From a virus (taxonomy: Duplodnaviria; Heunggongvirae; Uroviricota; Caudoviricetes), in the IMG/VR virus record IMGVR_UViG_2778261418_000019, positions 1 through 22,248 of that record: a stretch of 22,248 nucleotides of DNA; one strand, written 5' to 3'. Position numbers and translations under genes: made by a program. The notes under the pieces were generated by a model, which saw only the letters and a program-made list of their open reading frames with translations, was not told the DNA's origin and ran no database searches. Positions 1,591 through 15,334 of this stretch are shown piece after piece. Position 1 is the stretch's first letter. Each line of letters starts with the position of its first letter.

Positions 1591-2240
1591 TCAGTACGAT
1601 TCTTAATGATGATTTTCATGTAGGTATGTTGACTGCCGACGCAACAGGCCGCAATGCACTGGCAAACGTCAACGAAGAAGATATAGATACACTTATTCAA
1701 CGCCTGGAAGAAGTGAAAGACTATGTTAGTACACTTCGTACCGAGCGTATAAACGAAGCTAAGAAACTATTAGAATCACTTGTACAAGAGTCTGGTAGCT
1801 TCTCTAGTGTAGAGGAACTGCTTTCTACACTTGCCGTATCTTCTCCTGCTTCCATACCACAAAAAGCATCGAAGCCAAACGGCAATAAAATATTCGAAGT
1901 AGTCATAGTTGATAGCAAGAAGGACGAAAGAAGATCCTATAATGTAATCAATAAGAAGTTACCAGCGGCATTACTCAAGGATGAAGTATACATTCAGTTG
2001 GTTAAGAAGAATCCCGAACTATCAGACGTTGACGAGTTTTTACGGGCGTATAGTGAGGACTATCGCAAAAAATACCCGCTTAATGCGAAGTGGAACGGTC
2101 ATGAGTTCCATCTAAACCAGAAAGGGAAGATGAACGCGAAAGCACAGGAATACTACGCCGAGTACAAGAAGCAGTACCCCAAACAGGCCGACGAGCAAGA
2201 CTTCAAAGAGCTTGTTACTAAAGCCTATAAGGTAGCATAA
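1557..2240 (+). CDS. hypothetical protein (227 aa) with an H-NS-like N-terminal coiled-coil pattern and a K/Y-rich C-terminus
   Basis: ATG at 1557 follows GAGG with a 7-nt spacer (alternatives 1518 and 1587). EEDIDTLIQRLEEVKDYV...AKKLLESLVQESGSFSSVEELLSTL resembles an H-NS-type oligomerisation region. No TWTGRGRxP-type DNA-binding motif and no cysteines. Confidence 0.65.
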   Translation: MGSIKSITAKMISTILNDDFHVGMLTADATGRNALANVNEEDIDTLIQRLEEVKDYVSTLRTERINEAKKLLESLVQESGSFSSVEELLSTLAVSSPASIPQKASKPNGNKIFEVVIVDSKKDERRSYNVINKKLPAALLKDEVYIQLVKKNPELSDVDEFLRAYSEDYRKKYPLNAKWNGHEFHLNQKGKMNAKAQEYYAEYKKQYPKQADEQDFKELVTKAYKVA

Positions 2241-2247
2241 GAAGAAT

Positions 2248-2280
2248 AATAGCTACTACACAGATAAAGTAGTAGCTATT
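2248..2280 (+). terminator. perfect 12-bp stem-loop after the 1557-2240 gene (no U-tract)
   Basis: AATAGCTACTAC (2248-2259), loop ACAGATAAA, GTAGTAGCTATT (2269-2280). Confidence 0.4.
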
Positions 2281-2301
2281 ACTAAATATCATAGCTATAA
2301 T
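2273..2301 (+). promoter_or_regulatory. possible promoter for the lipoprotein cassette
   Basis: Consensus -10 TATAAT (2296-2301) sits 17 nt after a poor -35 TAGCTA (2273-2278) that lies in the hairpin arm. Confidence 0.3.
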
Positions 2302-2348
2302 AATTCACATCAAGCATCACTCCACACAATCACTAAAAGGAATTACTA

Positions 2349-2729
2349 ATGAAGCATCTCTTTGCCCTAGCTGTACTTGCTACTGCTACAATCACTACTG
2401 GCTGCACTACTACAATGCCTGCATTTATGAATGAAGCTGTAGTAGGTGATATTAACGGTCGTACACTAGTATTATTCCCCGTAAATGGTGGCAAAGAGTA
2501 TCGCCCACAATTCAGTAGTGATTGTCAGCCAATGCTATTAGGTGAAGAACGCCCATCTACTGGTAACTGTATTATTGCCGCCGCCCGCCTTACAAACATT
2601 CATAGCTACACCGAACATAAAGCCCACGGCCCCCACAAAAACACCACTAAGATAGTTGATCGTTCAAATAATTACGGTACAGAATTTGAGTTATCGAAAC
2701 CAACTAATTATATAGGCGATAATCTGTGA
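2349..2729 (+). CDS. putative lipoprotein (126 aa)
   Basis: AAGGA RBS. The N-terminus MKHLFALAVLATATITTGC is a signal peptide ending in a lipobox-like TTGC. Confidence 0.7.
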   Translation: MKHLFALAVLATATITTGCTTTMPAFMNEAVVGDINGRTLVLFPVNGGKEYRPQFSSDCQPMLLGEERPSTGNCIIAAARLTNIHSYTEHKAHGPHKNTTKIVDRSNNYGTEFELSKPTNYIGDNL

Positions 2730-2815
2730 TGAAGAAAACAATATTTGCCGTACTTTTAGTTATGGGGACTGCATATTACTATGATATAATAAAATATATT
2801 AATCCCACTTATTAA
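2729..2815 (+). CDS. 28-aa hydrophobic mini-protein (MKKTIFAVLLVMGTAYYYDIIKYINPTY)
   Basis: Its ATG overlaps the lipoprotein stop (TGATG at 2727-2731), suggesting translational coupling. The N-terminus is signal- or TM-like. Confidence 0.35.
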   Translation: MKKTIFAVLLVMGTAYYYDIIKYINPTY

Positions 2816-2908
2816 ATTGCAGTCGCCGTAATCAAAAACACTGTCATTATCTGGCATCAATAATGCCATTGATTCTGATAAAGTAGATAATCCCGAATGG
2901 ATGAATTT

Positions 2909-3289
2909 ATGAAAAAGATTGTACTGTCTGCATTACTGTTAGTAGCCCCTTCGGTACTGGCAGTAAATGTAATACTCCCTGATGATGGTCTGTATCGTTG
3001 CGGTGTTGAATCGTGGGAACAGGTAGGAAAGCGAGTAGTAAAGACTGGTTATTATGGTATGACTGGTTATGTGAGTATTGATAACCGTGCTGTTAGTGTG
3101 AAGTTTAGGGATGTGAATATTTCATTCAGCCCTGTTTCAAAACTTAAAAGCGGTCGCCTGATGGCCTATGCCGTAGATACTGACCAGTACGATATTATTA
3201 TTAGTGCAATCAATGGTAAAACACAGTATATGGTCAGCAATGAGAATAATCCCGTATTTTTGAACTTCTCCAATTGTATTATTGAATAA
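2909..3289 (+). CDS. secreted protein, paralog A (126 aa from ATG 2909; the track start 2897 is also possible)
   Basis: MKKIVLSALLLVAPSVLA|VN is a type I signal peptide. Cysteines sit near both ends of the mature protein (LYRC ... FSNC). Paralogous to 3299-3685. Confidence 0.7.
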   Translation: MKKIVLSALLLVAPSVLAVNVILPDDGLYRCGVESWEQVGKRVVKTGYYGMTGYVSIDNRAVSVKFRDVNISFSPVSKLKSGRLMAYAVDTDQYDIIISAINGKTQYMVSNENNPVFLNFSNCIIE

Positions 3290-3298
3290 GGAATAGAA

Positions 3299-3685
3299 AT
3301 GAAAAAGGTTATCGTATCTGCATTACTGTTAGTAGCTCCTTCGGTACTGGCTAACACTCACTCTCTACCAGAGCAGGGATTGTATCAATGTGATGTGAAA
3401 GTAGTTGAAATGCTGGGTGATACTCCAGTAGAAAAATCTTCTTATTCTGGTGCAGGTCACGCTAAAGTTAATAGTGATGGTTTTATCCTTAACTTCGGTG
3501 CAATGACTCACGCCACCGGACCAATAGAATCTAATGATTCAATGACAATGGCTTATGATAATGATAGGCAGCGATACTTCCTTGCAACAATGGGTAGTAA
3601 AGAGCAAAACGATATTACTTTTATCTTCTCATTGAGATCTGATACTCGTAATTACTACTTTCAAAACTGCGTTAAAATAAAATAA
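3299..3685 (+). CDS. secreted protein, paralog B (128 aa)
   Basis: AAGGAA RBS. MKKVIVSALLLVAPSVLA|NT is a signal peptide. Cysteines at LYQC ... FQNC. MAY and NC positions are shared with paralog A. Confidence 0.75.
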   Translation: MKKVIVSALLLVAPSVLANTHSLPEQGLYQCDVKVVEMLGDTPVEKSSYSGAGHAKVNSDGFILNFGAMTHATGPIESNDSMTMAYDNDRQRYFLATMGSKEQNDITFIFSLRSDTRNYYFQNCVKIK

Positions 3686-3696
3686 GGGATATATAT

Positions 3697-3906
3697 ATGT
3701 CAGAGAAACTAATTAAAGCAATCCGTAATATTACGGAATATAATATGAGTATTGAGCGTATCATTGTTAGTACCGAAGACCAGCAACACTATTATAGTAT
3801 TAATCCTTATAAGGAAACTGTAATAAAGGTAGCAGACCAATACGGCAAACCAATTGAAGGAGAAGTAGAAATACCACAAATACCGCCATTATTCGATACT
3901 AACTAA
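3697..3906 (+). CDS. hypothetical protein (69 aa)
   Basis: AAGGGA RBS 7 nt upstream. A strong terminator follows directly. Confidence 0.6.
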   Translation: MSEKLIKAIRNITEYNMSIERIIVSTEDQQHYYSINPYKETVIKVADQYGKPIEGEVEIPQIPPLFDTN

Positions 3907-3912
3907 TAATAT

Positions 3913-3940
3913 AGCCCACTAATAAAAGTGGGCTTTTTTA
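3913..3940 (+). terminator. rho-independent terminator
   Basis: AGCCCAC (3913-3919), 8-nt loop, GTGGGCT (3928-3934), then TTTTTT. The stem sequence matches the hairpin at 303-323. Confidence 0.8.
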
Positions 3941-3951
3941 TTCCTGCCTAA

Positions 3952-3978
3952 ATACTCCTATACATGCAATAGGAGTAT
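3952..3978 (+). promoter_or_regulatory. hairpin that sequesters the RBS of the 3985 gene
   Basis: ATACTCCTAT (3952-3961) pairs with ATAGGAGTAT (3969-3978) across the loop ACATGCA. The right arm contains the AGGAG Shine-Dalgarno at 3971-3975. Confidence 0.35.
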
Positions 3979-3984
3979 CCCACC

Positions 3985-4371
3985 ATGAATACAATCTACC
4001 TACACTTCCCTGATGGAACGTATAAGGCCATAGAAAGCACCACAGGCCGACAGGAATCAGGATACATACCATCACGCAAGGATAAGCTAATAACCGCTCA
4101 TATCATCACACAGGACGGTTACGAGCTATTCATAGATACCTATACACTAACGCTTAAGTATAAATACATTACATTAAACTACTCACGCTTCACCATAGGC
4201 CGTACTAATTACCCTATCAATGCACTAGATACATTCAGCGGTAGTGAGCTACCACACTTAACCCGACTAAGGGAACTACGCGACGAGATCTTACAGTACC
4301 GTACCGTAGATGGTCTGCCTATCTCTTATCGTTGTGATGTAATCGTTAGTAATATGGTGATACTCAAGTAG
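3985..4371 (+). CDS. hypothetical protein (128 aa)
   Basis: AGGAG RBS. Ends in TAG, followed two codons later by an in-frame TAA. No motif recognised. Confidence 0.65.
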   Translation: MNTIYLHFPDGTYKAIESTTGRQESGYIPSRKDKLITAHIITQDGYELFIDTYTLTLKYKYITLNYSRFTIGRTNYPINALDTFSGSELPHLTRLRELRDEILQYRTVDGLPISYRCDVIVSNMVILK

Positions 4372-4684
4372 ATTGCATAAGAAGTGCATAACGGCATGGG
4401 TGGCATGATTCTGCACTGATAGGTGATACCTATCAACATTATGTACAATTTGTGCGATCTTATCGAAAAAAGATGAAATTAATTAAAATAAAGGTTGACA
4501 AATAAAAATATAATAGGTTCTCCCAAAAAACGGCAAATAGAGCGAGTTTTCGCCGCGAATTGCAAATAAAATTCGTGGAAAATTTTACAAAGAACAAACA
4601 AAACTATAGATAAAATCTATCAGTACAGAAATAGATAGGAAATATCAATCAATGGAAAAGAATAAAAAGTGAATAGGAAATCAC
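4372..4684 (+). other. 313-nt non-coding region upstream of terS; probable cos and terminase-binding region
   Basis: No ORF. Very AT-rich with one small GC island. Repeated GATAG-type motifs: the inverted pair TGATAGGT/ACCTATCA (4417-4435), ATAGATA (4606-4612), GATAGAT inverted (4615-4621) and ATAGATA (4631-4637). Direct TGCATAA repeats at 4374 and 4385. The position matches lambda cos, immediately upstream of Nu1. Confidence 0.4.
4549..4559. other. GC-rich palindrome TTCGC-C-GCGAA, candidate cosN nicking centre
   Basis: It is the only GC-rich, two-fold symmetric element in the AT-rich leader of a Nu1/GpA-type terminase operon. Confidence 0.2.
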
Positions 4685-5254
4685 ATGGCAAAAGTAAAAG
4701 ATGATGGAACAAGATATTCCTGGCAAGAAATTGCCGACCGATTCGGTGTGGAACATTCCACAGTATCCCGTATCTGGTCTGGTAAAGGACTGGATATTAC
4801 ATGGCCTAAGAAATTAGTAGACGACTGGTTACTTGCAAACGTAATCGAACCCCTACGCAATGGTGATACTAAAGGTCAAATACAAAAAGCAAACCTACGC
4901 AAACTAGAAGCAGAAGCAGACCTAAAAGAATTAGAACTACGTCAACAATCTGGTGAACTAATTCCGGTAGCAGTAGTACAGCAAACATTATCACAATATT
5001 TCTATCAACTAAGACAGGTACTAAGAAGTATTCCAGCGTCGAGTTATGTAGAACTATTTGAATCACAGGACGCCTTAGAATTAAAAATTAAATTACAGGA
5101 CAAGATAGACCGCCAGCTAGAAGAAATCGGCGGGTATGAATATGAGGGAACATATGAAGACCAACTACCAGAAGATGATGAAGATCCTAACGAGGGCGGC
5201 GAAGTCGATCCTACCTCCGAAGAAACAACTACCCGCAGAGTGGGTAGAGAGTAA
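4685..5254 (+). CDS. terS: terminase small subunit (Nu1-like, 189 aa)
   Basis: The N-terminal HTH-like segment is YSWQEIADRFGVEHSTVSRIW. A coiled-coil middle resembles lambda Nu1, and the tail is acidic. It lies immediately upstream of terL. Confidence 0.8.
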   Translation: MAKVKDDGTRYSWQEIADRFGVEHSTVSRIWSGKGLDITWPKKLVDDWLLANVIEPLRNGDTKGQIQKANLRKLEAEADLKELELRQQSGELIPVAVVQQTLSQYFYQLRQVLRSIPASSYVELFESQDALELKIKLQDKIDRQLEEIGGYEYEGTYEDQLPEDDEDPNEGGEVDPTSEETTTRRVGRE

Positions 5255-7049
5255 CCTAGTCTTCCCCGATGGCGAACTACAAGGGCAACGCGTCAAATTA
5301 TTTGCCTTTCAACATAAGCCCATCAACGATATAGTTAATCCACGTGTACGTAAAGTGGTACTAATGAGTAGTGCTCAACTTCTCAAAACAACGGTACTAC
5401 AGAATAGTATGTACTACTTCCTAGCCAATGATCCGAGTAACATGATCTTCGGTGGTGCTACTGGCGGTACTACAAGTAAATTCCGTACTGGTAAATGGCA
5501 GGCAGTCATAGAAGCATGTCCGGTGCTGAAAAATCTAGTTAGTAATAAGAATGATAAGAACTATACGAACAATGACAAGACACAACAAAATTTAGATGGT
5601 ACGTTTACCTACTTCCTGTCATTGGGTAGTAGTGCTTCCCTTCGTGGCCTTAGTTCGCCTCGCGTATTCCTAGACGAGATATCAAACGTAGACGCAGACG
5701 GGGATGAAGGCAACCCATTGAAGCTAGCCGAGCAGAGGACGAAAGCATTCTCTAACCCCCTTATTATGTGTTGTTCTACACCACTAGATGAACACGACCT
5801 GATTACTCAACAGTACGAGCAAAGTAATAAACAGAAGTTTTATGTACCGTGTCCACACTGTAACCACTCTCACGAAATGGTATTCGAGAATGTTAAATTT
5901 GAATGGAAGATCATAGAAGGTGGTCGCCGTCGTATCCCCGATGCAGATACTGCAAGATTAGAATGCCCAAAATGTAATAATGTAATCACCGAAGCAGAAC
6001 GTGTACGAATGATTCGTAGGGGTGAATGGGTAGTAACAGCACCAGAAGTAACCGATATAATGGGATATCACATATCTAGACTCTATTCCCCCATCAACTC
6101 CATAAAATCAATAGTAGCAGACTTTGCCGAAGCACATTATACCTTTGACCTTGCATCATTCTATAACAACGTCTTAGGACTACCATATATTGATAAAGAG
6201 AATACCGACCATGATTTGGTACTGTTAGAGAACCTACGCGATAGTGAAATAGATATTAATACCGTGCCAGATGATTGTCAGGGAATCGTATTTGGCGTAG
6301 ACCAACAGTTAGACCGTTTGGAAGTTACTACACTAGGAGTAAGTGAAAAGAATCTATATGTACTAGATCATAGAAGCATTTACGCAATTGACTGTACTAA
6401 GATCGAAGCACCAGCATGGAATAAGCTAACGGCCTTTGCAAATACACCATTTAAAACTAAATCGGGTAAACCATTGAAGGTACTGGCAGGATTCGTAGAT
6501 AGTTCGAACGGCAACGCAACTAGTACCGTATATCGCTATTGCAGTAGTTCTACTATCTTTAAACCAATCAAAGGTGGTACGTCTAACTCTAACCCACTAT
6601 TCAAAGATAGTACCGCTGGTGGTCACTCCCTGATTAACCTTAACGTAAACTTAGGCAAATCAAACGTCCGTCAATTACTCAACCGTGCTGTATCCGATAG
6701 TGAAAATAGTAAGGAAGTACAAATACATTTCAGTCATTCAGTACCGGATGATTACTTTATTCAGCTTACTTCCGAGAAGCGAGTAATAAAGGCTGGTGCC
6801 TGGGTATGGGTGAAGAAAGTTAGTTCGGCGAGAAATGAAACCCTTGATTGTCTTAATTACTCGCTTATATGTTTCCAGTGGTATCTATCCAAGTTAGGTA
6901 GTCAACCATTCCGACAACTAAGGGAATACAACGCTAAACAAAAAGAGAAAGCAGGACTAAATAAAGAAGTAAATACAGAAGAAGCACCAACTAAGCCAAC
7001 TCCAAAACGAGTAATAAGGCCGCGTAAAGGTGGTGGATTCTTTAAATAA
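5136..7049 (+). CDS. terL: terminase large subunit, GpA family (637 aa; alternative starts at 5142, 5154 and 5175)
   Basis: Blocks match lambda gpA: LPAEWVESNLVFP vs AVEWADANYYLP, GVDQQLDRLEV vs GIDSQLDRYEM, and RNETLDCLNYSL vs RNEALDCFVYAL. It also has CPHC...CPKC zinc-ribbon cysteines. Confidence 0.93.
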   Translation: MNMREHMKTNYQKMMKILTRAAKSILPPKKQLPAEWVESNLVFPDGELQGQRVKLFAFQHKPINDIVNPRVRKVVLMSSAQLLKTTVLQNSMYYFLANDPSNMIFGGATGGTTSKFRTGKWQAVIEACPVLKNLVSNKNDKNYTNNDKTQQNLDGTFTYFLSLGSSASLRGLSSPRVFLDEISNVDADGDEGNPLKLAEQRTKAFSNPLIMCCSTPLDEHDLITQQYEQSNKQKFYVPCPHCNHSHEMVFENVKFEWKIIEGGRRRIPDADTARLECPKCNNVITEAERVRMIRRGEWVVTAPEVTDIMGYHISRLYSPINSIKSIVADFAEAHYTFDLASFYNNVLGLPYIDKENTDHDLVLLENLRDSEIDINTVPDDCQGIVFGVDQQLDRLEVTTLGVSEKNLYVLDHRSIYAIDCTKIEAPAWNKLTAFANTPFKTKSGKPLKVLAGFVDSSNGNATSTVYRYCSSSTIFKPIKGGTSNSNPLFKDSTAGGHSLINLNVNLGKSNVRQLLNRAVSDSENSKEVQIHFSHSVPDDYFIQLTSEKRVIKAGAWVWVKKVSSARNETLDCLNYSLICFQWYLSKLGSQPFRQLREYNAKQKEKAGLNKEVNTEEAPTKPTPKRVIRPRKGGGFFK

Positions 7050-7551: not shown

Positions 7552-9047
7552 TGTTCGGATGGAATAAAAAGAAAGTAGAAGAACCTAAACAAAAAGTTTT
7601 AGTACAGAAGCCAGTGAAGCTAATGAAGAATAACCCAATGAAACGAGCAATGACTTCCCTGAATTTGGGATCATCTAGCCCTGTTATCTCATTTGGCTTC
7701 ACTGGTGGTAATCAGGCTGGCAATATTAACGCCATCATTAACCGTACACTACCCGTAATGGTAGCCGTTAGTCGTGAACTATCAATCAAGAACGGTATTG
7801 TAAAAAAATATGTTAGTACGAATAGTGCAGGTGTAACGGGTGCAGATGGCCTATATATTCGCCCTTGTACGCATAGCTCCGACGACGAACAGGTTAACCA
7901 GTCAATCGATAAACAGATTGAAGATGCGTTTTACACGTGGGCCGAAGATCCTAAAGCGTTTTCCCGCTGCGGTACTCTAGATATCAGTACCTTCCAACGT
8001 CTGGTAGAACGTACTCGATCAGTAGATGGTGATTGTTTCATTCGCGTTCACAGTAAGCCAGGAGAGCTACCACAGATTGAGATTATCGATTCTATGCGTA
8101 TCTCGACCTATGAGAACCAATTACTACCAAGTGGTAACTATATTAGTAATGGTATTGAATTTGATATTAATACTAACCGACCTGTAGCTTATTGGGTAAC
8201 ACGTTATAACCCCATCATGTACAACTATATGATTGGTGAGCGTGAACGAGTACCAGCCGACGAGATCCTACACCTATTTCAGCAGGACTATCCAACACAG
8301 CAACGCGGTATTCCAGATGTGCATTCCGGTACTGAAAAGTTAAAAGAGTTAGAGGAATTTATGTCGGCGGCAATTACTTCCCGAAAGGTTGCAGCGTCCG
8401 CAATGGCCTTTATTACTAACCCTGATAGTGATGACGTACAGCTACTGACTGATGATAGTGTATCGTACTATGATCAGGACTATCTAAATCCGGCTGCAAT
8501 CGTAGAACTACAGGCAGGTCAGGATATTAAAACAGTAAACCCAACACAGACTACCGATGGTATACAAGAGTTTATTGATAACCAAATGATGATGATTGCA
8601 ATGGGATTAGATATTACAAAACAATCTCTAACTTCTGATACTAGTAATGCTTCATTCAGTGCTGCAAAGTTAACTGATAAATTACAGCAATCAACATTTA
8701 AAAGCCGTACTAATGCTTTAATTGTATCCGTACTGAAACCTCTTTATATTGCATGGCTAAAATCTGCAATGCTAAATAATAGTACATTAAGCAATTTAAA
8801 TTTTAGTGATTTTAATAAATTAACTCATGCACAATATGTACAGACGCGTCAAATCTCCCTAGATCCATATAAAGACCTTCAAACCGAAGTATTAGCAATT
8901 GATAACGGTTTAAAGAGTAAGGCAATGGTAATTTCGGAGATGGGATACGATCCGGTTATTGTCATGGAAGAAATCAACAAGGAAAATAAAGAAAATGGAA
9001 TTGAACAAGAACCAGACGAGGGCGATCAATCTAACGCAGATCAATAA
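7551..9047 (+). CDS. portal protein, lambda (gpB) family (498 aa)
   Basis: Its size, its position after the terminase and W genes, and its TAATG coupling all fit. Sequence character is typical of lambda-family portals. Confidence 0.88.
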   Translation: MFGWNKKKVEEPKQKVLVQKPVKLMKNNPMKRAMTSLNLGSSSPVISFGFTGGNQAGNINAIINRTLPVMVAVSRELSIKNGIVKKYVSTNSAGVTGADGLYIRPCTHSSDDEQVNQSIDKQIEDAFYTWAEDPKAFSRCGTLDISTFQRLVERTRSVDGDCFIRVHSKPGELPQIEIIDSMRISTYENQLLPSGNYISNGIEFDINTNRPVAYWVTRYNPIMYNYMIGERERVPADEILHLFQQDYPTQQRGIPDVHSGTEKLKELEEFMSAAITSRKVAASAMAFITNPDSDDVQLLTDDSVSYYDQDYLNPAAIVELQAGQDIKTVNPTQTTDGIQEFIDNQMMMIAMGLDITKQSLTSDTSNASFSAAKLTDKLQQSTFKSRTNALIVSVLKPLYIAWLKSAMLNNSTLSNLNFSDFNKLTHAQYVQTRQISLDPYKDLQTEVLAIDNGLKSKAMVISEMGYDPVIVMEEINKENKENGIEQEPDEGDQSNADQ

Positions 9048-10857
9048 TGCAATTGATGAAAACGATAGAACTGTAGAACTCTCTTTTGCCTCCGAAATTC
9101 CAGTAGTACGCGATATTAAAGGGACTCTCTATAATGAGATCCTTTTATGCAGTCCTGAAAACGTAGATTTAAGCCGTCTAAATGACGGTGCACCTGTACT
9201 AGTAGAACATGATGCAATGCGTCAAGTTGGTATAGTTGAAAATGCTCGCGTAGATATGGATAAAGTATGTCGTGCTACTGTACGTTTTAGTGCTTTGGGT
9301 ACTGCAAATACTATCTTCGGAATGATCGTAGAAGGTATTCGCCCTAAAGTATCAGTAGGTTATAACATCCTAGATTACTATCTAGATGGTAATGATCTAA
9401 TCGTTTCCAAATGGCAACCATACGAAGTATCAAGCGTATCCACTCCCGCAGATAATAGCGTAGGTGTAGGAAGATCACTAAATAGTAATGATGAAATTAC
9501 TTTAGAGGATCAACCCCAAATGGAACCAGAACAAAAAGAAGAACTAGTACAGGAAGTAAAAATTATTGAAAAAGCACCACAAGAAGAAGTGCAATCAGAA
9601 GTAGTTGAAGAATCCGTAGTAGTCGAAAGTGAAGAATCAGTAGAAGTAGTAGAAGTTGAAGTAATCGAGGAAGTACAAGAAGATGTACAACCGGAATTAG
9701 TAGAAGAACGTTCTATTGCAGTAACTGATATTCAAGAAAGTATAAATAAAGAAGTAGAAGCAAATCGTATTCGCGAACTTCAATCTATTTCTTCGGTACT
9801 AGGTGTTAGTACCGAAGAAGCAATTAAAAACGGTGTAAGCGTAGAAGACTTTAAACGCTCACTACTAAATAAAGATAACAAATCAATTGATAAGGAAATC
9901 AAACAAATGGATAAAAAATCTCTAATCGCCGAAGGTCTACGTAGTCTAAAAGGCGAAGCAAACGAACTAGCAACCTTCGAAAAAGGTACACGCGGTTATA
10001 ATGCAGATCTTAATGCTATGGTACGTTCTACTGCCGATACCACTTCTACCGTCACTGCCGCAGGTCTTGTAAAAGAAGAATTAGCAGATGCCTATATTCG
10101 CCAACTACTTGCACGTACCGTACTAGGTGAACTACCAGTTACCGTCTTTGGTGGTCTTGCTGGTCGTGGTAATTTCTCTATCCCACGTGCAAAAGGTATG
10201 AACCCAGTAGCACGTTTCTATGGTGAAGATGAAGCAGTATCCGATGGCTTCGAAACCTTCGATAAGATCACTCTAAAGCCTCGCATGTTCGCAGCAGGTA
10301 TCAAGATCACTAAAGCAATGCTACTAAGCAACGCAGCTACCGAACGTTATGTAACTGATGAGCTACTACGCCAATGTTCTAACGGTCTAGAATCAGCAGT
10401 ATTTACACAAATCGCTAATACCGTTCCAGTACAGGAAACCGCAGCAGTAGGTACAGTAACCGAAGCAGACGTACAGAAAGCAATTGAGGCACTAGGTGTA
10501 GCAAACGTTGATATCAACCGTTGTGTTGCAATCGTCCACCCTTCTATGCTCGCTAAACTACGTCAGTATGCAATTTTGGGTAACACCAGTGCAGTAAGTG
10601 CTGTAGCAGGCCATCGCTATGATATGTGGTTGTGTGACGAAGTACGCGTAATTGAATCTACTTTCGTAGCAGCAGATGCAATTCTAATTGGTGACTTCTC
10701 CGAACTAATCTTTACTAACTGGAACGAAGGCCAAGAGCTGGATTTCGACGATACTACCTACCGTGCAGCACAAACTATCGCAATCCGTAGCTTCCAGTAC
10801 CTTGATGTAGCTATTGCACACGAAGAATCATTCGTACAAATCAAACTAAAAGCATAA
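8995..10857 (+). CDS. fused prohead protease (HK97/S78-type), acidic linker with scaffold-like region, and HK97-fold major capsid protein (620 aa from ATG 8995)
   Basis: The N-terminal part has PVLVEHD...KVSVGY...YEVSSVSTPAD, the protease His and Ser blocks. Bases 9490-9710 encode an E/V-rich linker. The ANRIRELQSI...AIKNGVSVEDFKRSLL motif is scaffold- or delta-like. The C-terminal ~290 aa have HK97 MCP character (AILIGDFSELIFTNWNEGQELDFDD...IAIRSFQYLDVAI). The track start 8959 is a TTG. Confidence 0.85.
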   Translation: MELNKNQTRAINLTQINNAIDENDRTVELSFASEIPVVRDIKGTLYNEILLCSPENVDLSRLNDGAPVLVEHDAMRQVGIVENARVDMDKVCRATVRFSALGTANTIFGMIVEGIRPKVSVGYNILDYYLDGNDLIVSKWQPYEVSSVSTPADNSVGVGRSLNSNDEITLEDQPQMEPEQKEELVQEVKIIEKAPQEEVQSEVVEESVVVESEESVEVVEVEVIEEVQEDVQPELVEERSIAVTDIQESINKEVEANRIRELQSISSVLGVSTEEAIKNGVSVEDFKRSLLNKDNKSIDKEIKQMDKKSLIAEGLRSLKGEANELATFEKGTRGYNADLNAMVRSTADTTSTVTAAGLVKEELADAYIRQLLARTVLGELPVTVFGGLAGRGNFSIPRAKGMNPVARFYGEDEAVSDGFETFDKITLKPRMFAAGIKITKAMLLSNAATERYVTDELLRQCSNGLESAVFTQIANTVPVQETAAVGTVTEADVQKAIEALGVANVDINRCVAIVHPSMLAKLRQYAILGNTSAVSAVAGHRYDMWLCDEVRVIESTFVAADAILIGDFSELIFTNWNEGQELDFDDTTYRAAQTIAIRSFQYLDVAIAHEESFVQIKLKA

Positions 10858-11599: not shown

Positions 11600-15334
<3,735 letters not shown>

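Follow-up and report, generated by a model that had tools for sequence, protein, structure and literature searches.

Comparison with related prophage loci shows that positions 2241-3912 of the window, i.e. of the whole 22,248-nucleotide (nt) stretch analysed here (positions 1 to 22,248 of IMG/VR virus record IMGVR_UViG_2778261418_000019), constitute a hypervariable cargo slot of an Escherichia coli prophage, and the five genes that fill it, all on the + strand, are almost certainly accessory cargo in a hot spot. They code for a putative lipoprotein (Lpp126), a membrane peptide (TM28), two tandem secreted paralogs (PeriA and PeriB, the 'barrel' family) and a small cytoplasmic protein (p69). Loci of this kind are known, with accessory genes in a prophage hot spot beside the packaging genes; this new one carries two orphan families of envelope proteins. 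As to what the cargo does, the fullest explanation that we can offer, namely a cargo slot occupied by two modules whose products protect the cell by binding at its envelope, may well be correct but falls somewhat short of being probable.

The comparison set consisted of about 45 related loci (each designated by L and a number), in which we considered the interval from p227 to orf128 or to the gene of the small terminase subunit (TerS). About 17 architectures were found between p227 (227 amino acids) and orf128 (128 amino acids). L042 represents the empty site: there, the stop codon of p227 is followed by AGCCCAC-loop-GTGGGCT-T6, then by a palindrome and orf128. Elsewhere, the cargo is of very diverse nature. 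The slot of L027 contains an Old nuclease of the P2 type (8795-10615, minus strand; PADLOC Old, E 1.4e-74). Open reading frames (ORFs) of the slot region lie at 5793-6731 (minus strand), 4151-4876 (plus strand) and 2493-3191 (minus strand) in L031 and at 2015-2998 (minus strand) in L041; the cargo types across these two loci are a PLD-family (PLDc_2) nuclease, an HNH/mREase_IV-like nuclease, an 8xMP membrane protein and a DUF4238 protein. A 242-amino-acid protein with an NPPF-type methyltransferase motif, recognised by eye only, is encoded in the slot of L029, and further relatives have other lipoproteins and secreted proteins there. Several relatives (L042, L031/L043, L033 and L041) possess neither the lipoprotein nor the barrel family. 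The proposal made in the initial annotation, that the cassette was inserted just before the packaging genes, is thus borne out: this is a true variable site, with an empty version and many alternative cargoes, some of them anti-phage genes. Its suggestion of a moron-type layout holds in part: the genes are variably present between conserved flanks, but their base composition is not distinct (GC content of 0.33-0.40 versus 0.35-0.44 for the flanks) and the terminator is that of the backbone.

Cargo is inserted at the 3′ end of the p73-p227 operon, between the stop codon of p227 and the intrinsic terminator of the operon, and hence upstream of orf128, the probable cos region and the terminase genes. 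The backbone genes p73 (1369-1590, + strand) and p227 (1557-2240, + strand), whose operon is extended by the cargo, are always found directly upstream of the slot in relatives, with 45-98% identity and a ratio of non-synonymous to synonymous substitution rates (dN/dS) of about 0.1; neither has a family match, and a PDB sequence search with p227 was also empty. The terminator (3913-3940, + strand) is made of an AGCCCAC-loop-GTGGGCT stem (3913-3934, z-score -4.9) followed by T6. In the empty site of L042, p227 is immediately followed by an identical stem; the terminator thus belongs to the backbone, where it ends the p73-p227 operon, rather than to the cargo, which lies within that transcription unit. 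This stem also follows the cargo in L034; in L025 the equivalent position is occupied by another terminator stem. In L029 the lipoprotein gene begins 1 nt past the stop codon of p230, and in L034 the barrel gene overlaps the stop codon of the p227 homolog; in these two loci the cargo, being within 0-1 nt of the upstream stop, is therefore co-transcribed with the upstream genes. The cassette cannot be called self-contained, as had been supposed at first. We note that a second terminator with an AGCCCAC/GTGGGCT stem is present at 303-323 of the window, as at 3913-3934 and at 5456-5484 of L042; this stem looks like a lineage-specific terminator motif of operon ends, and possibly of recombination borders too. 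The right border of the slot consists of a palindrome, ATACTCCTAT-N7-ATAGGAGTAT (3952-3978, + strand; a perfect 10-bp repeat), which ends 6 nt before the backbone gene orf128 (3985-4371, + strand). This border is conserved in L025, L034 and L042, the palindrome only partly so in L042, and the palindrome is a candidate operator or activator site of the orf128-terminase operon.

Judging from the distribution and divergence of its genes, the cassette is composed of two modules that move independently, one being Lpp126 with TM28 and the other PeriA/PeriB with p69. The lipoprotein occurs without the barrel module, alone in L025 and with unrelated neighbours in L029 and L040. Conversely, the barrel is found without the lipoprotein in three settings: together with a p69 homolog in L034, L037, L038 and L039, where a coupled transmembrane peptide of 49 amino acids comes after the barrel; together with Old in L027, L035 and L036; and in L044 (alone) and L046, where it is membrane-anchored and not cleaved. 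As for divergence, in the L004-L036 comparison the differences between loci amount to 46-58 nt in TerS and about 20 nt in Lpp126, but to 0-5 nt only in the block of PeriA, PeriB and p69 (2909-3906), which sets the two modules about 10-fold apart. Such a small difference in this block when Lpp126 and TerS are diverged indicates that it has spread recently by recombination, in a sweep. Because of the separate occurrences and the different divergence, the modules are not one five-part system, and the idea of a single five-gene combination, put forward in the initial annotation, has to be given up.

Lpp126 (126 amino acids; 2349-2729, + strand) is a predicted outer-membrane lipoprotein. Its N-terminus, MKHLFALAVLATATITTGC, has a PROSITE-type lipobox ending at Cys19, with Thr at position +2, as assigned by rule. 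The AlphaFold2 (AF2) model, with a predicted local distance difference test (pLDDT) score of 57, suggests a folded core at about residues 25-95 and a disordered C-terminal part of 30 amino acids; there is no C-terminal hydrophobic segment in the protein. Besides the lipid-modified cysteine, Cys59 and Cys74 are conserved in the family alignment. The family is limited to 6 clusters among 5.8 billion proteins, and its dN/dS is about 0.27. Lpp126 is the sole lipobox ORF in the 33-kb prophage; some 18 kb separate it from the tail-tip genes downstream, near which there is no lipobox ORF. A candidate unimolecular spanin, suggested by a 76-amino-acid lipoprotein with a hydrophobic tail in L029, was discarded: another frame continues the full-length homolog, which points to a frameshift. 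TM28, a single-pass membrane peptide of 28 amino acids, presumably located in the inner membrane (2729-2815, + strand), is start-stop coupled to Lpp126, its ATG overlapping the stop codon of the latter by one base (TGATG); an alternative GTG start is found at 2726. In 9 loci ATA stands in place of this ATG, but the GTG is retained. All three substitutions observed in TM28 among loci (3/3) are synonymous. The peptide is absent from L025 and L029. Small single-pass membrane peptides start-stop-coupled to exported cargo were also seen at 5899-6048 of L034 (49 amino acids) and at 8492-8635 of L046 (47 amino acids); these two and that of the window have no mutual sequence similarity.

PeriA (2909-3289, + strand) and its tandem paralog PeriB (3299-3685, + strand) are 31% identical overall (E 1e-19), and the DNA coding for their signal peptides is 89% identical. 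Both start with MKK followed by a hydrophobic core and VLA, and thus have putative Sec-type signal peptides, judged by simple rules. Among the genuine genes of the window, signal-like N-termini are those of the three cassette proteins only, plus the hydrophobic N-terminus of the tail-tip protein. The mature proteins would be about 108 amino acids long, ending in ...NCIIE or ...NCVKIK, with two invariant cysteines each, one near either end of the mature chain; in PeriA, Cys31 is placed in the first strand and Cys123 in the last. The PeriA model is a small up-and-down 8-stranded barrel with a pLDDT of 86, rising above 90 in the mature part, so that PeriA can be confidently modelled as a small disulfide-bonded secreted barrel. 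Eight clusters of this family were found, and 1.84 billion representatives, searched exhaustively with a profile, yielded 6 members only. In a viral structure library, the nearest models are those of uncharacterised phage secreted proteins and lipoproteins. Proteins of the Ail/Lom/OmpX type differ in having a mature barrel of about 150 amino acids; PeriA and PeriB, at about 108, have no Pfam match to them and no C-terminal aromatic β-signal. Two other candidate relationships were rejected. A match of the barrel family to the botulinum HA33 β-trefoil lectin (E 0.004) vanishes with a broader profile and contradicts the confident barrel model, and a 109-amino-acid secreted protein of L029 aligns through its signal peptide alone. 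A recombination breakpoint lies within PeriA, as seen in strain WGI31CT and in the chimeric protein P0010. The last gene product, p69 (69 amino acids; 3697-3906, + strand), is an acidic cytoplasmic protein without hydrophobic segment, found in 3 clusters only, in E. coli and E. fergusonii; a 77-amino-acid homolog (31% identical) follows the barrel gene in L034, L037, L038 and L039.

The five ORFs are therefore as first described, with a lipobox, two signal peptides, a 28-amino-acid membrane peptide, a pair of paralogs and a 69-amino-acid protein, and the rule-based features agree with the envelope targeting initially proposed. All five proteins are lineage-restricted orphans: there is no Pfam, PHROG, NCBIfam or credible PADLOC match, in line with the earlier statement that they have no recognisable enzymatic motif, and no plasmid homolog. 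In a PADLOC scan of four of the five products (the 28-amino-acid peptide was excluded), the sole match was that of PeriA to an oligonucleotide cyclase model (E 0.016, 12.7 bits). None of the five proteins belongs to the Llp, Cor, Bor, spanin or MliC groups. Across alleles, dN/dS ranges from 0.0 to 0.6 and is below 1 for every cassette gene, which indicates that these are coding sequences under purifying selection.

On its upstream side, the slot contains an inverted repeat, TAATAGCTACTAC-N9-GTAGTAGCTATTA (2247-2281, + strand), which can form a perfect 13-bp stem and has no U-tract. The hairpin has a predicted stability of -16.5 kcal/mol (z-score -4.7), none of 200 shuffled sequences folds equally well, and the repeat is kept in close relatives. 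Possible functions are those of an operator, of an RNA hairpin or of a weak stop downstream of p227. A search of the prophage for a regulon signature gave no second full copy of this repeat or of the 3952-3978 palindrome; half-sites of the former with one mismatch number 9, versus 2.4 expected from shuffles, and are scattered within genes. A TATAAT hexamer (2296-2301, + strand) is a candidate -10 box. Its best -35 matches 3/6 positions, there is no extended -10, and it was not called by a consensus promoter scan; this strand has 14 TATAAT hexamers, compared with about 18 expected from composition. Of the elements thought to bracket the cassette, the hairpin and the terminator stand (z-scores of -4.7 and -4.9), but the TATAAT box lacks a credible -35 and occurs at chance frequency.

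The whole window is part of a prophage of about 33 kb and about 39% GC, which extends from position 12066 of L022 to position 4641 of L024 and splits the yegD gene of E. coli. A 532-amino-acid large serine recombinase is encoded alongside, and integration into yegD is by this type of enzyme. The phage is a rare temperate siphophage of Escherichia, of the lambda-terminase type. The prophage is present in only 2 of 5,426 complete E. coli genomes; the exact cassette proteins are nevertheless found again in 60-112 blocks of assemblies and metagenomes. Its hosts are gut isolates. Examples of lysogens are isolate 02B21CPO003B (NZ_CM151386.1) and GCA_002521215.1. There is no close relative, at the DNA or protein level, in 50,697 phage records, where the closest match of the large terminase subunit (TerL) is only 37% identical, and none among PLSDB plasmids. 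A literature search on the yegD prophage or the cassette proteins gave nothing relevant, no replication genes were recognised in the prophage, and Rfam and tRNA scans had no matches. In the left part, the recombinase comes first, followed by small early genes, p73, p227, the five cassette genes and the terminator; the right part consists, in order, of the palindrome, orf128, a 313-nt gap, TerS, a GpA-type TerL, portal, capsid and tail. The tail fibre occupies 11600-15334 of the window, and the tail-tip protein runs from 20458 to its end. TerS (4685-5254), of DUF1441 type, matches PHROG 57 (E 1.6e-20). The longest ORF for TerL has 119 nt (5136-5254) in common with TerS; the TerL start differs among public gene calls (561, 631 or 637 amino acids), and in several assemblies TerL or the portal gene is split in two ORFs, possibly through frameshifts or assembly errors. 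The 313-nt non-coding gap (4372-4684) directly 5′ of TerS contains a 25-nt inverted repeat (4409-4433 and 4606-4630) and is a probable candidate for the cos region; if so, the cargo would sit at one end of the virion DNA. Lysis-like genes are located at the extreme right of the prophage (L024, 2181-2928 and 4302-4595), the endolysin (L024, 2476-2928) being about 22 kb from the cassette. They are limited to an 88-amino-acid protein with a transmembrane domain (TMD) and a predicted coiled coil, a 150-amino-acid glycoside-hydrolase endolysin on the minus strand and a 97-amino-acid protein that has two TMDs at its C-terminal end. A canonical spanin pair was not seen in the prophage.

We infer that the cargo protects by binding at the envelope because the slot carries anti-phage genes in relatives and because the exported products have no enzyme domains. 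These products would act at the envelope of the lysogen or of the infected cell. Lpp126 might bind an outer-membrane protein on its periplasmic face, a jamming of the Llp/Cor type, and the barrels might bind an incoming component acting in the periplasm: tail-tip protein, ejection protein or muralytic enzyme. By analogy with known systems, superinfection exclusion or envelope protection is a possible function of the cassette, albeit a somewhat doubtful one. Exclusion by lipoproteins has precedent, and the genes concerned usually adjoin receptor-binding or tail-tip genes (PMC9586334). With T5 Llp and the Cor family (T1, phi80, N15), Lpp126 shares the character of a phage-encoded outer-membrane lipoprotein having no enzyme domain and conserved cysteines in its mature part, so that receptor-jamming from the periplasmic face is conceivable. 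The likeness to the Llp or Cor type that had been suggested is not supported, however: the sequences are not similar and the structures not significantly so, the mature chain is of about 108 amino acids rather than about 60, and the gene is not located beside or downstream of a receptor-binding or gpJ gene. The concept of morons is due to Hendrix and colleagues; bor and lom are morons of lambda, and Bor is an outer-membrane lipoprotein. Like the cassette, bor and lom are extra envelope genes between backbone genes near cos and terminase, variably present among relatives; unlike morons of that kind, the cassette has no homology to Bor or Ail/Lom, no compositional contrast, a terminator that belongs to the backbone and a promoter that is only a candidate. 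T4 Sp and Imm and P1 Sim are exclusion proteins acting in the periplasm or membrane, Sp being helical. As small exported phage proteins that act on incoming phage, they exemplify the mechanism that we would favour for the barrels, with no homology between the two. Finally, the defence hot spots of P2 and P4 prophages (Rousset et al. 2022; PMC9122126) provide a precedent for the rapid exchange of cargo at a fixed position flanked by conserved genes of the prophage, and an Old gene of the P2 type occurs in the relatives studied here; but the phage lineage and the position are others, and the cargo of the window matches no known defence protein and is exported, not cytoplasmic.

Several observations weigh against protection at the envelope. 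The searches made revealed no homology to exclusion, defence or immunity proteins. The position of the Lpp126 gene, not adjoining receptor-binding or tail-tip genes, is unlike that of llp, cor and other genes of exclusion lipoproteins. The promoter is weak and the cargo of L029 and L034 is fused to the upstream operon, so that expression in the lysogen is only putative. The association with Old and other nucleases is weak too, since those systems are cytoplasmic and encoded on the opposite strand. Lastly, a highly diverged barrel family persists at the same position in distant relatives, which would also fit a conserved function in the phage cycle. A bolder version of our proposal, which we hold to be unlikely, is that the 2-Cys barrels, secreted or membrane-anchored, with the coupled membrane peptides and p69, form an unrecognised class of periplasmic exclusion or lysozyme-neutralising factors, kept at one position throughout a lineage of enterobacterial prophages and diversified by intragenic recombination, Lpp126 then being an unrelated, new receptor-jamming lipoprotein.

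What else could the cargo be for? It might serve lysogenic conversion or immunity, against host lysozyme, peptidoglycan hydrolases of type VI secretion systems (T6SS) or colicins, or bring serum or host resistance as lambda Bor does. The fold of the barrel comes nearest to the PliC/MliC/PhiA lysozyme inhibitors, Neisseria ACP and the T6SS immunity protein BtaiB, and the modelled PeriA shares with PliC/MliC a periplasmic 8-stranded barrel; but no MliC/PliC motif or Pfam match was found (12 members of the barrel family scanned, E<=1), and unrelated or designed barrels are at least as similar. A tandem pair of diverged paralogs that share a conserved signal peptide is reminiscent of orphan-immunity arrays, and the gut-isolate hosts would suit such a role, but no toxin or T6SS genes are nearby. 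The slot of L041 codes for a secreted protein of 242 amino acids (4189-4917) in which an LprI lysozyme-inhibitor domain (PF07007, E 2.7e-7) is combined with a PQ repeat and, at the C-terminus, a 2-Cys domain. A resemblance of its C-terminus to the barrel family (GIYKCD...ICKK) was considered and rejected, the hhalign probability of 5.6% being not significant, and the link between this protein and the barrels is lost with it. Taken together, these data make an immunity function unlikely.

A conserved role in lysis or its control is, we think, quite improbable; the lipoprotein would be o-spanin-like, and the pairs of barrel and membrane peptide would act as antiholin, spanin or timing factors. 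Since Lpp126 is the sole lipobox ORF, the prophage has no other o-spanin candidate, and its recognised lysis-like genes are the three cited above. The synteny of the barrel persists in distant relatives, sometimes in membrane-anchored form (P0016, P0017), and exported proteins are repeatedly coupled to small membrane peptides. On the other hand, spanins are encoded within a lysis cassette with o-spanin and i-spanin genes adjacent, whereas here the endolysin is about 22 kb away, no i-spanin-like gene adjoins, and the gene after Lpp126 codes for a 28-amino-acid peptide with only about 10 periplasmic residues. A unimolecular spanin would combine a lipobox with a C-terminal TMD, which Lpp126 does not have; that which the L029 lipoprotein seems to have stems from a frameshift. 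Moreover, the signal peptides of PeriA and PeriB are cleavable, so that these proteins are not anchored, and several relatives (L042, L031/L043, L033 and L041) do without both families. Could the cassette then be hitch-hiking or decaying cargo, of no current use to phage or host? Its orphan families have a very narrow distribution, frameshifted or truncated copies exist (the L029 lipoprotein, a remnant in L036, a 53-amino-acid fragment of p69) and TM28 has lost its ATG in 9 loci. But every gene has a dN/dS below 1, and TM28 shows synonymous substitutions alone; the same exact proteins turn up in 60-112 contig blocks, the barrel-p69 block has spread nearly unchanged over diverged backbones, and the fold model of PeriA is a confident one. 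A cargo of no use is therefore very improbable.

At present, this is an ordinary-looking moron or hot-spot locus with orphan genes. The slot, from the stop codon of p227 to the AGCCCAC terminator, is a defined site that can be mined for cargo in an uncharacterised lineage of yegD-integrating prophages. Exclusion at the level of the envelope is a class poorly covered by defence-finding programs, which are biased to cytoplasmic nucleases and NTPases. If the protective role is true, two new families, a lipoprotein and a minimal secreted β-barrel, would join the few exclusion factors of the periplasm and outer membrane.

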